DNA from: Escherichia coli
GTDB lineage: Bacteria; Pseudomonadota; Gammaproteobacteria; Enterobacterales; Enterobacteriaceae
Strand: one strand, 5' to 3'
DNA length: 64,000 nucleotides
Assembly (NCBI RefSeq): GCF_016903815.1
Contig: NZ_CP069973.1
Position numbers: made by a program. This document shows positions 3,001 to 6,000 of the stretch, piece after piece. Position 1 is the stretch's first letter. Every line of letters starts with the position of its first letter.

Positions 3001-6000
3001 GCGGAATATGGTTATGCAGCGGGCAGGTCCATTCACAAACGCTGTGCTCGCCGCATTTAAGGCAGCGCGAGGCTTCCCGTTGTGCCTGATCGACACGGAA
3101 TGGCAGATAAATTTCATCAAAACCGGTTTTGCGCGCTTCAATCGCCAGTTTATCCGGCTCGCCACGCGCGGGCGTTGCCTGCATTTGCTCGACTTTACTC
3201 ATTACCGGCATTTCTTGTGCCGCGGTACTGGCATGCCACGGTTGATGTTCCTGACGTGCGGTGCGCAGGCGGCGGGATTTCGCCATGCCGGAGAGTGCGG
3301 CATCAGTGACCAGTTGCAGCGCGTCCGCCGGGCAATTCTCGACACAGGCAGGACCGTTTTCGCGCCCTGCACAAAGGTCGCATTTATGCGCCGTGGCTTT
3401 TACTTTGCCCGCCGCGACGGGTGTCAGGACGATTTGCATCGTACCAAATGGACAGGCCACCACGCAGGATTTACAGCCAATACACTTTTGCTGATTGACC
3501 TGAATGCTGTCATCAACGTGGCTGATTGCGCCATTAGGGCAACTACGGGCGCAGGGCGCATCTTCGCAATGGTGACAGGTCACTGCACTACGTTGCTGCT
3601 GATGTTTGATAACCGTAATTCGGGGATGAAAATGGTGTTGGCTCAGGACATGTTGCTCATCATTGTGAGCCATGACACAGGCGATTTCACAAGCATGACA
3701 ACCCAGACATTGCTGACTGTTGGCCATAATAAAACGATTCATAACGACCTTCTTTTTTGGTTGTAAAAACCTTATGCTTTATATGAGTGTTGTTATTACC
3801 CGACTTACAGGGGAATCGGCAATGTTCATGTGCCCAGAATAAGTAACTATTTCGCTATAAACTGTGGCAGATCAAATAATCCCATCACTGACTAAATTGC
3901 GTTTCAGCGAACTGGAACATTAATGATTTTTTGTGGAGAAGACGCGTGTGATTGTTAAACGACCCGTCTCGGCCAGTCTGGCCCGGGCCTTTTTTTACAT
4001 TGTGCTGCTGTCGATTCTTTCCACGGGTATCGCTCTGCTAACGCTGGCGAGCAGTTTACGCGACGCTGAGGCTATCAATATTGCCGGATCGCTGCGTATG
4101 CAGAGTTACCGCCTGGGCTACGACTTGCAAAGTGGCAGTCCACAACTCAATGCACATCGCCAGTTGTTTCAGCAGGCACTGCATTCACCGGTATTAACCA
4201 ATCTCAACGTCTGGTATGTGCCAGAGGCAGTAAAAACCCGCTACGCGCATCTGAATGCCAACTGGCTGGAGATGAATAATCGGCTCAGCAAGGGCGACTT
4301 GCCGTGGTATCAGGCCAATATTAATAATTATGTTAATCAAATAGACCTGTTCGTGCTGGCTTTACAGCACTACGCTGAACGCAAAATGCTGCTGGTGGTG
4401 GCGATTTCCCTGGCTGGCGGCATCGGTATTTTCACGCTGGTCTTTTTTACTTTGCGCCGCATACGCCATCAGGTGGTTGCCCCGCTGAATCAGCTGGTTA
4501 CCGCCAGTCAGCGTATTGAACACGGACAGTTCGACTCGCCGCCGCTGGATACCAGCCTGCCGAATGAGCTTGGCCTGCTTGCCAAAACCTTTAACCAGAT
4601 GTCGAGCGAGCTACATAAATTGTACCGTTCGCTGGAGGCGTCAGTAGAAGAAAAGACCCGCGACCTCCACGAGGCCAAGCGTCGCCTGGAGGTGTTGTAT
4701 CAGTGTTCGCAGGCGCTGAACACCAGCCAGATTGATGTGCATTGTTTCCGCCATATTTTGCAGATTGTGCGCGACAACGAAGCGGCTGAATATCTGGAGT
4801 TAAATGTCGGTGAAAACTGGCGGATTAGCGAAGGGCAACCAAACCCGGAATTGCCGATGCAGATTTTACCAGTGACAATGCAAGAGACGGTTTACGGCGA
4901 ACTGCACTGGCAAAATAGTCACGTTTCATCATCAGAACCGCTGCTTAACAGCGTTTCGTCGATGCTGGGACGCGGTTTGTACTTTAATCAGGCGCAGAAG
5001 CATTTTCAGCAGTTATTGTTGATGGAAGAACGTGCGACCATCGCCCGCGAATTGCACGACTCGCTGGCTCAGGTACTTTCTTACTTACGTATCCAGTTGA
5101 CGTTACTGAAGCGTTCGATACCGGAAGATAACGCCACCGCACAAAGTATCATGGCCGATTTTTCCCAGGCGTTGAATGATGCTTATCGGCAGTTACGCGA
5201 GCTGTTGACTACTTTCCGCCTGACGCTGCAGCAGGCAGATCTCCCCTCCGCGTTGAGGGAAATGCTGGATACGTTACAAAATCAAACCAGCGCTAAACTG
5301 ACCCTCGACTGCCGCCTGCCAACCCTGGCGCTGGATGCGCAAATGCAGGTGCATTTGTTGCAAATTATTCGCGAAGCGGTGCTGAATGCGATGAAGCACG
5401 CCAACGCCAGCGAAATCGCCGTTAGCTGCGTCACCGCGCCGGATGGCAATCACACGGTCTATATTCGCGACAACGGGATTGGCATCGGTGAACCGAAAGA
5501 ACCCGAAGGCCATTATGGTCTGAATATCATGCGCGAACGCGCGGAAAGATTGGGTGGGACGCTGACTTTTTCGCAACCTTCCGGCGGCGGCACGTTAGTG
5601 AGTATTAGCTTTCGCTCTGCGGAGGGTGAGGAAAGTCAGCTGATGTAATGCCTCTTATTGACCAAAGAATAGTGGCACTTAAGGTTCAGTATAAAAGGGC
5701 ATGATAATTTACATTAACTCCTTTTTTTCTCCACGATTGGCTCGTACCTTGCCGCTACAGTGAAGCAAGTCAAGCCTACAACGATACGCAGAAACACGAG
5801 GTCCTCTTTTAATGGCGAATTTCTTTATTGATCGCCCCATTTTTGCCTGGGTGCTGGCAATCCTGTTGTGTCTGACAGGGACCCTGGCGATTTTCTCATT
5901 GCCCGTTGAACAATACCCCGATCTCGCGCCACCGAATGTGCGAGTGACCGCTAACTATCCCGGCGCATCGGCCCAGACGCTGGAAAACACCGTGACCCAG

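Follow-up and report, generated by a model that had tools for sequence, protein, structure and literature searches.

Background

Operators of the OmpR/PhoB family, the pho box of PhoB among them, consist of half-sites which lie about 11 bp apart in head-to-tail orientation and overlap or replace the -35 element; pho boxes end approximately 10 nt before the -10 hexamer. The primary papers on BaeR binding are Hirakawa 2005, Nishino 2005 and Nishino 2007. The acrD site is a documented BaeR target and has been known in the literature from 2005 onward. For E. coli, the BaeR motif was published as 5'-TTTTTCTCCATDATTGGC-3' (PMC3915751). PMC2731931 lists acrD among the reported E. coli BaeR binding sites and cites ycaC as one of four such sites; PMC10052836 and PMC4846824 cite acrD as directly regulated or bound by BaeR in E. 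coli and Salmonella. Moreover, a promoter fragment of acrD from Erwinia amylovora was shifted by BaeR in an EMSA (PMC3915751), and acrD of Salmonella belongs to the BaeR-dependent tungstate response.

Confirming the acrD site adds nothing new by itself. The additions made here are modest: they comprise the bases under constraint, a tandem of CTCC units 28 nt from a conserved -10 element, an adjoining block at positions 5705-5713, and an E. coli-specific change in the distal half-site. The map of constrained bases should improve the motif matrices predicting BaeR regulons in other species.

The BaeR box in the narQ-acrD intergenic region

The DNA analysed here, called the window, is a stretch of 64,000 nt from E. 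coli contig NZ_CP069973.1. The 1 kb around the motif is 100% identical to the chromosome of E. coli strain 7/2, whose annotation lists narQ and then acrD for this region; the same stretch was matched in 5424 of 5426 complete E. coli genomes, most of which diverge by 1-5%. The range 5650-5811, which a preliminary description of this DNA had assigned to the acrD promoter, is essentially the whole intergenic region. The features of the locus are:

3948-5648: narQ, with its stop codon at 5646-5648
5649-5811, no strand assigned: narQ-acrD intergenic region of 163 nt between the end of narQ (5648) and the start of acrD (5812), carrying the acrD promoter
5724-5741, + strand: 18-nt BaeR box of the published type, TTTTTCTCCACGATTGGC; 17 of 18 positions agree with TTTTTCTCCATDATTGGC; identical in K-12, where the box has the coordinates 2587507-2587524
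5812-8925, + strand: acrD, the regulated gene, an RND multidrug efflux permease; ORF of 1037 aa, annotated as acrD in strain 7/2

The preliminary description had compared the site with a BaeR consensus, which is correct in that it agrees with the motif quoted in PMC3915751. TTTTTCTCCACGATTGGC itself was located on the + strand exactly at 5724-5741. Counted from the ATG, it occupies -88 to -71; its 3' end thus lies about 70 nt upstream of acrD, as had been claimed. The single difference from TTTTTCTCCATDATTGGC is found at position 11, where the site has a C and the consensus a T. When up to three mismatches were allowed, 5724-5741 was the sole match on both strands of the 64 kb, with 0.12 matches expected. 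Full-text matches to the motif string in the literature were unrelated primer sequences only.

A comparison with the mdtA and spy promoters, which had been proposed as a check, revealed that 15 of the 18 bases are common to all three K-12 promoters, according to the pattern TTTTTCTCC-NNN-ATTGGC. The sites read ...CCATAATT... in spy, ...CCCTTATT... in mdtA, and ...CCACGATT... in acrD, where K-12 equals the window; in the K-12 promoters, the corresponding reads are TTTTTCTCCATAATTGGC (spy) and TTTTTCTCCCTTATTGGC (mdtA). The majority of the spy, mdtA and acrD sites reproduces the "ATD" of the published motif exactly. Evidently, then, the acrD site was one of those from which the consensus was built, and its 17/18 agreement with the consensus is in part circular. 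A pattern deduced from spy and mdtA only, TTTTTCTCCMTWATTGGC, is independent of acrD: with up to two mismatches it matched only 5724-5741, and it gave 0 matches in 100 shuffles, which indicates that the match is far beyond chance. The fourth candidate for comparison, ycaC, was set aside; the best 18-mer match in the K-12 ycaC-ycaD intergenic region has seven mismatches.

Conservation of the acrD promoter

The ortholog scan was based on one genome per species and yielded 80 AcrD orthologs (82-99% identity) from Escherichia, Citrobacter, Salmonella, Enterobacter, Klebsiella, Kosakonia, Buttiauxella, Cedecea, Erwinia and others; 79 of these came with upstream sequence. All column counts given below refer to an alignment of 75 distinct acrD promoters. 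The element is present upstream of acrD in 78 of the 79 loci, i.e. the core TTTCTCCACGwTT is kept among the Enterobacteriaceae and Erwinia, and the absence from orthologous promoters that would have spoken against the preliminary description was not observed. Only in Shimwellia pseudoproteus is the module of BaeR box and -10 hexamer absent within the 700 nt upstream of acrD.

The constraint is distributed unevenly over the box. Within the 18-mer, positions 3-15 (5726-5738, the core) are shared by 72 or more of the 75 promoters, save the A/T position 5736. At 5739 (18-mer position 16), a G occurs in 63 of 75 promoters, and the 3' "GC" (5740-5741; 18-mer positions 17-18) is variable and not conserved outside Escherichia. 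The published 18-mer with its unconserved 3' "GC" is hence not the exact unit under selection. Conserved sequence extends 5' of the motif that had been described; on the 3' side, a non-conserved gap (5740-5747) is followed by CCTTGCCGC-TAnAnT. The distance between TCTCC and the hexamer is 28 nt in every promoter, whereas the module itself lies anywhere from about 80 to 212 nt before the ATG. This combination of a fixed internal spacing with a variable distance to the gene argues for a single promoter unit made up of box and hexamer. In E. coli itself, positions 5696-5765 show no difference from the window in 5331 of 5386 records, despite a divergence of 1-5% of the surrounding kb in most genomes. 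Conservation of this degree demonstrates function; it does not show which protein binds.

As a side observation, the box reported for E. amylovora, TTCTTCACGATTACTGGC (PMC3915751), seems to be offset by 3 nt against the ortholog alignment, as judged from the acrD promoter of Erwinia mallotivora. In the register of the alignment, TCTTCACGATT would correspond to TCTCCACGATT.

Half-sites and proposed promoter layout

Beyond the 18-mer, the promoter is made up of the following elements:

5705-5713, + strand: invariant block TAATTTACA directly 5' of the half-sites; 5709-5713 conserved in 74-75 of 75 promoters; CpxR is a candidate binder
5717-5722, + strand: predicted promoter-distal half-site, ACTCCT, set 11 bp 5' of the proximal unit; nearly all other species have TCTCCT here
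5728-5733, + strand: predicted core of the promoter-proximal BaeR half-site, TCTCCA; 72-75 of 75 promoters; at about -40 to -35 of the putative start
5756-5761, + strand: putative -10 hexamer, TACAGT; T in 75/75, A in 75/75, a variable position, A in 74/75, G in 68/75, T in 75/75
5768 (+/-2 nt), + strand: putative transcription start, placed 7 nt after the -10 hexamer, which leaves a leader of about 44 nt
5796-5804, + strand: conserved Shine-Dalgarno region, ACGAGGTCC, with GAGG at 5798-5801, 10 nt before the ATG; high conservation in the 75 promoters

The CTCC units at 5718-5721 and 5729-5732 constitute a direct repeat with a distance of 11 bp, and both are conserved; in the distal unit, C occurs at 5718 in 72, T at 5719 in 75 and C at 5721 in 75 of the 75 promoters. 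Two direct-repeat half-sites with a periodicity of 10-11 bp are what is expected for the operator of an OmpR/PhoB-family regulator such as BaeR, the upstream unit of E. coli (ACTCC) being the weaker one. The arrangement CTCC-N7-CTCCA occurs once in the window, as does YCTCCA-N22-TAVAKT, for which 0.01 occurrences were expected.

Position 5717 distinguishes E. coli from its relatives. In 72 of 75 ortholog promoters it is a T, which creates a second TCTCC, and in E. coli it is an A; the exact T allele was not matched in any complete E. coli genome, i.e. the A is essentially fixed. Hypothetically, the half-site weakened by A5717 could lower BaeR occupancy at acrD. The exchange of TCTCC for ACTCC would then offer a concrete and testable reason for K-12 acrD behaving like a weak or "indirect" target of BaeR.

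The putative -10 hexamer was located by phylogenetic conservation, as the column pattern of TACAGT is the one expected of a -10 element. A scan of 5500-5900 identified no consensus sigma-70 promoter, and no -35-like hexamer is found at the proper spacing from TACAGT, which fits a promoter that is silent without an activator. If transcription starts near 5768, the 18-mer covers -44 to -27 and the half-sites have their centres near -51 and -40. A mapped acrD start site was not found in the literature, and the Cappable-seq supplements contain no entry near the expected coordinates. Other assignments were considered and rejected. GATAAT (5703-5708) as a -10 and TTTACA (5708-5713) as a -35 element lack a partner element or have one that is not conserved; with transcription starting upstream of the box, BaeR would moreover be a repressor, contrary to the RNA-seq data described below.

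The predicted leader (5768-5830) is unstructured and folds no better than its shuffles (z = +1.69), and no Rfam family matched anywhere in the window, the acrD leader included. A riboswitch or another leader structure is consequently unlikely. A scan of 5500-5900 detected no intrinsic terminator-like site; since such a structure is lacking between the narQ stop codon and acrD, read-through from narQ into acrD may occur.

BaeR dependence, binding data and CpxR

BaeR-dependent induction of acrD has been shown in the literature. In LB with 5% ethanol, the baeR knockout differed from the wild type by a log2 value of -2.91 for acrD (p = 2e-39; about 7.5-fold) according to the RNA-seq supplement of PMC7657598, and without stress acrD was unchanged (log2 -0.20; PMC7657598). 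The box, whose location was computed here, hence belongs to the promoter of a gene that, according to published data, needs BaeR for its induction by stress.

The binding data of the same study have to be read with care. ChIP-exo in 5% ethanol gave BaeR peaks at mdtA and spy and neither a BaeR nor a CpxR peak upstream of acrD, which the authors classified as indirectly regulated (PMC7657598). At mdtA, the BaeR peak (2153931-2153967) covers both CTCC units. At spy, the box (1825764-1825781) falls between the two peaks (1825677-1825711 and 1825823-1825843), neither of which covers it; this means that the ChIP-exo set does not report every box faithfully. Because this data set is imperfect in both sensitivity and resolution, the missing peak at acrD is not decisive.

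In the cpxR knockout, the log2 value of acrD was -1.87 (RNA-seq, PMC7657598). CpxR is reported to enhance the BaeR-dependent induction of acrD, and its action at acrD and mdt strictly depends on BaeR (PMC2731931). A search for the CpxR box GTAAA-N5-GTAAA with up to two mismatches found no match within 5649-5811. The best candidate, ATAAA-AGGGC-ATGAT at 5691-5705, has four mismatches and was rejected; the Salmonella counterpart of these positions is the proposed "site 2", GTAAA-agcgc-ATGAT (PMC4846824). The invariant block TAATTTACA resembles neither a BaeR half-site nor the CpxR consensus; in likeness to the CpxR box, the minus strand carries a GTAAA at 5712-5708, which is conserved and adjoins the BaeR units.

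The mdtA and spy promoters

In the mdtA promoters of five genera (E. coli, Salmonella, Citrobacter, Klebsiella, Enterobacter), the invariant element is TTCCTCCAT, which is located immediately 5' of the published 18-mer. The core of this 18-mer is poorly conserved; in Klebsiella, for example, it reads TTTTTAAGCGGCGTTCGC. With the conserved TAmAmT as anchor, 28 nt separate the upstream mdtA unit from the -10 element, the same spacing as for the TCTCCA of acrD and spy.

Salmonella and two Citrobacter species keep the box, a spacer of 14 nt and TAyACT in their spy promoters, these relatives being too close to inform much. The K-12 spy promoter, which lies on the minus strand, consists of the BaeR box, 14 nt and then TACACT, like that of acrD. 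About 55 nt further downstream, K-12 spy has a better sigma-70 promoter, TTGACG-N16-TAATCT, and spy may thus have two promoters.

Taken together, the alignments suggest that the constrained unit may consist of YCTCCA at about -40 plus a second unit of variable position, and that the ATTGGC tail is over-weighted in the published consensus.

Proposed mechanism and alternative explanations

We consider it very probable that 5717-5741 is the BaeR operator of the acrD promoter and that the promoter works in the following way. Envelope stress, the reported inducers of which include indole, metals, tungstate and ethanol, would activate the kinase BaeS. Phosphorylated BaeR, a protein with an OmpR/PhoB-type winged helix, would then occupy the CTCC half-sites 5717-5722 and 5728-5733 as a head-to-tail dimer, in the register that we infer from the repeat, at about -51 and -40 from a start near 5768. 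With a recognisable -10 hexamer and no usable -35 element, bound BaeR would presumably replace the -35 contact and recruit sigma-70 RNA polymerase, in the manner of PhoB at pho boxes. Transcription would yield an acrD mRNA that is monocistronic and begins with about 44 nt of unstructured leader. The proposal of the preliminary description, namely that envelope stress induces this pump by means of the BaeR box, is thus supported by the consensus match, the likeness to mdtA and spy, the conservation, the ethanol RNA-seq data, the reported sites and the Erwinia EMSA. As AcrD substrates comprise aminoglycosides, anionic beta-lactams and other compounds, the induction of acrD by BaeSR is part of the adaptive drug and metal tolerance of enterobacteria.

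Two explanations compete with a BaeR operator altogether. A chance occurrence in a T-rich intergenic region is so improbable that it can be neglected: the T-richness of the motif is all that speaks for it, whereas the acrD-independent pattern was matched in none of the 100 shuffles and 78 of 79 species retain a near-invariant core. It is also unlikely that BaeR acts on acrD only indirectly, the conserved block serving some other factor as its operator or being a core promoter of an unusual kind. Such an explanation would account for the missing ChIP-exo BaeR peak at a gene that is BaeR-dependent in the same condition, and for the invariant block that reaches in 5' direction (5705-5713) into sequence unlike any BaeR half-site. 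However, the spy peaks are likewise found beside the spy box and not over it, 15 of 18 bases common to three BaeR-dependent promoters are not due to chance, the orthologous Erwinia promoter is bound by BaeR in vitro, and acrD is named as a BaeR site in the papers cited above.

A further explanation refines the BaeR operator and does not replace it. The 18-mer might be a composite, in which BaeR recognises only the 5' TTTCTCCAYG; the operator would then be a tandem of YCTCCA at a fixed distance from the -10 hexamer, and the 3' ATTGGC would be spacer, sequence of the -35 region or a lineage-specific coincidence. The variation of 18-mer positions 17-18 in the acrD orthologs, the invariant mdtA unit TTCCTCCAT 5' of a published 18-mer with a variable core, and the distance of 28 nt between YCTCCA and TACAsT in all three E. 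coli promoters point in this direction. On the other hand, wTTG (5736-5739) is strongly conserved in the acrD orthologs, the four spy promoters compared all retain ATTGGCG, and the mdtA and spy samples cover only four or five genera; all in all, we regard the composite as a serious option whose chances are somewhat below even. Tentatively, and with clearly less than even confidence, it can be combined with the change at 5717 into a joint reading: the textbook 18-mer would be mis-specified, since the motif would consist of YCTCCA 28 nt from the -10 hexamer plus a movable unit, with an ATTGGC tail that is largely Escherichia-specific and an essential mdtA unit 5' of the box; and the T-to-A exchange at 5717 would degrade the upstream half-site of acrD in E. 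coli. If this joint reading were true, the change at 5717 could explain both the weak BaeR occupancy of acrD, which lacks a ChIP-exo peak, and its reliance on CpxR.

Comparison with known systems

Among the BaeR targets, acrD, mdtA and spy share their BaeR dependence under stress, and in E. coli all three carry a YCTCCA 28 nt upstream of a TACAsT hexamer. They differ in the position of the second half-site, which is located 11 bp upstream in acrD, 10 bp downstream in mdtA (in the register anchored on the -10 element) and 22 bp upstream in spy. They differ also in their ChIP-exo BaeR signal: mdtA has one, spy has one nearby, and acrD has none; spy, unlike acrD, has a stronger sigma-70 promoter downstream.

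Outside the BaeR regulon, the DzrR box of the Dickeya/Burkholderia desAB genes is comparable (PMC10052836). It is a tandem of CTCCAT, footprinted with DNase I, with a periodicity of 11 bp, CGGTTCTCCATCATATCTCCATATT, and lies upstream of an RND efflux operon; DzrR is an OmpR-family protein related to BaeR and AdeR. The counterpart of this repeat in the acrD promoter is CTCC-N7-CTCCA. In contrast to the DzrR repeat, the upstream unit of acrD is degenerate (ACTCCT), and DzrR differs from BaeR in being a separate regulator of other genera, which is reported to be independent of phosphorylation. With respect to the family as a whole, the half-sites of acrD end about 19-20 nt before the -10 hexamer, compared with the approximately 10 nt of pho boxes.
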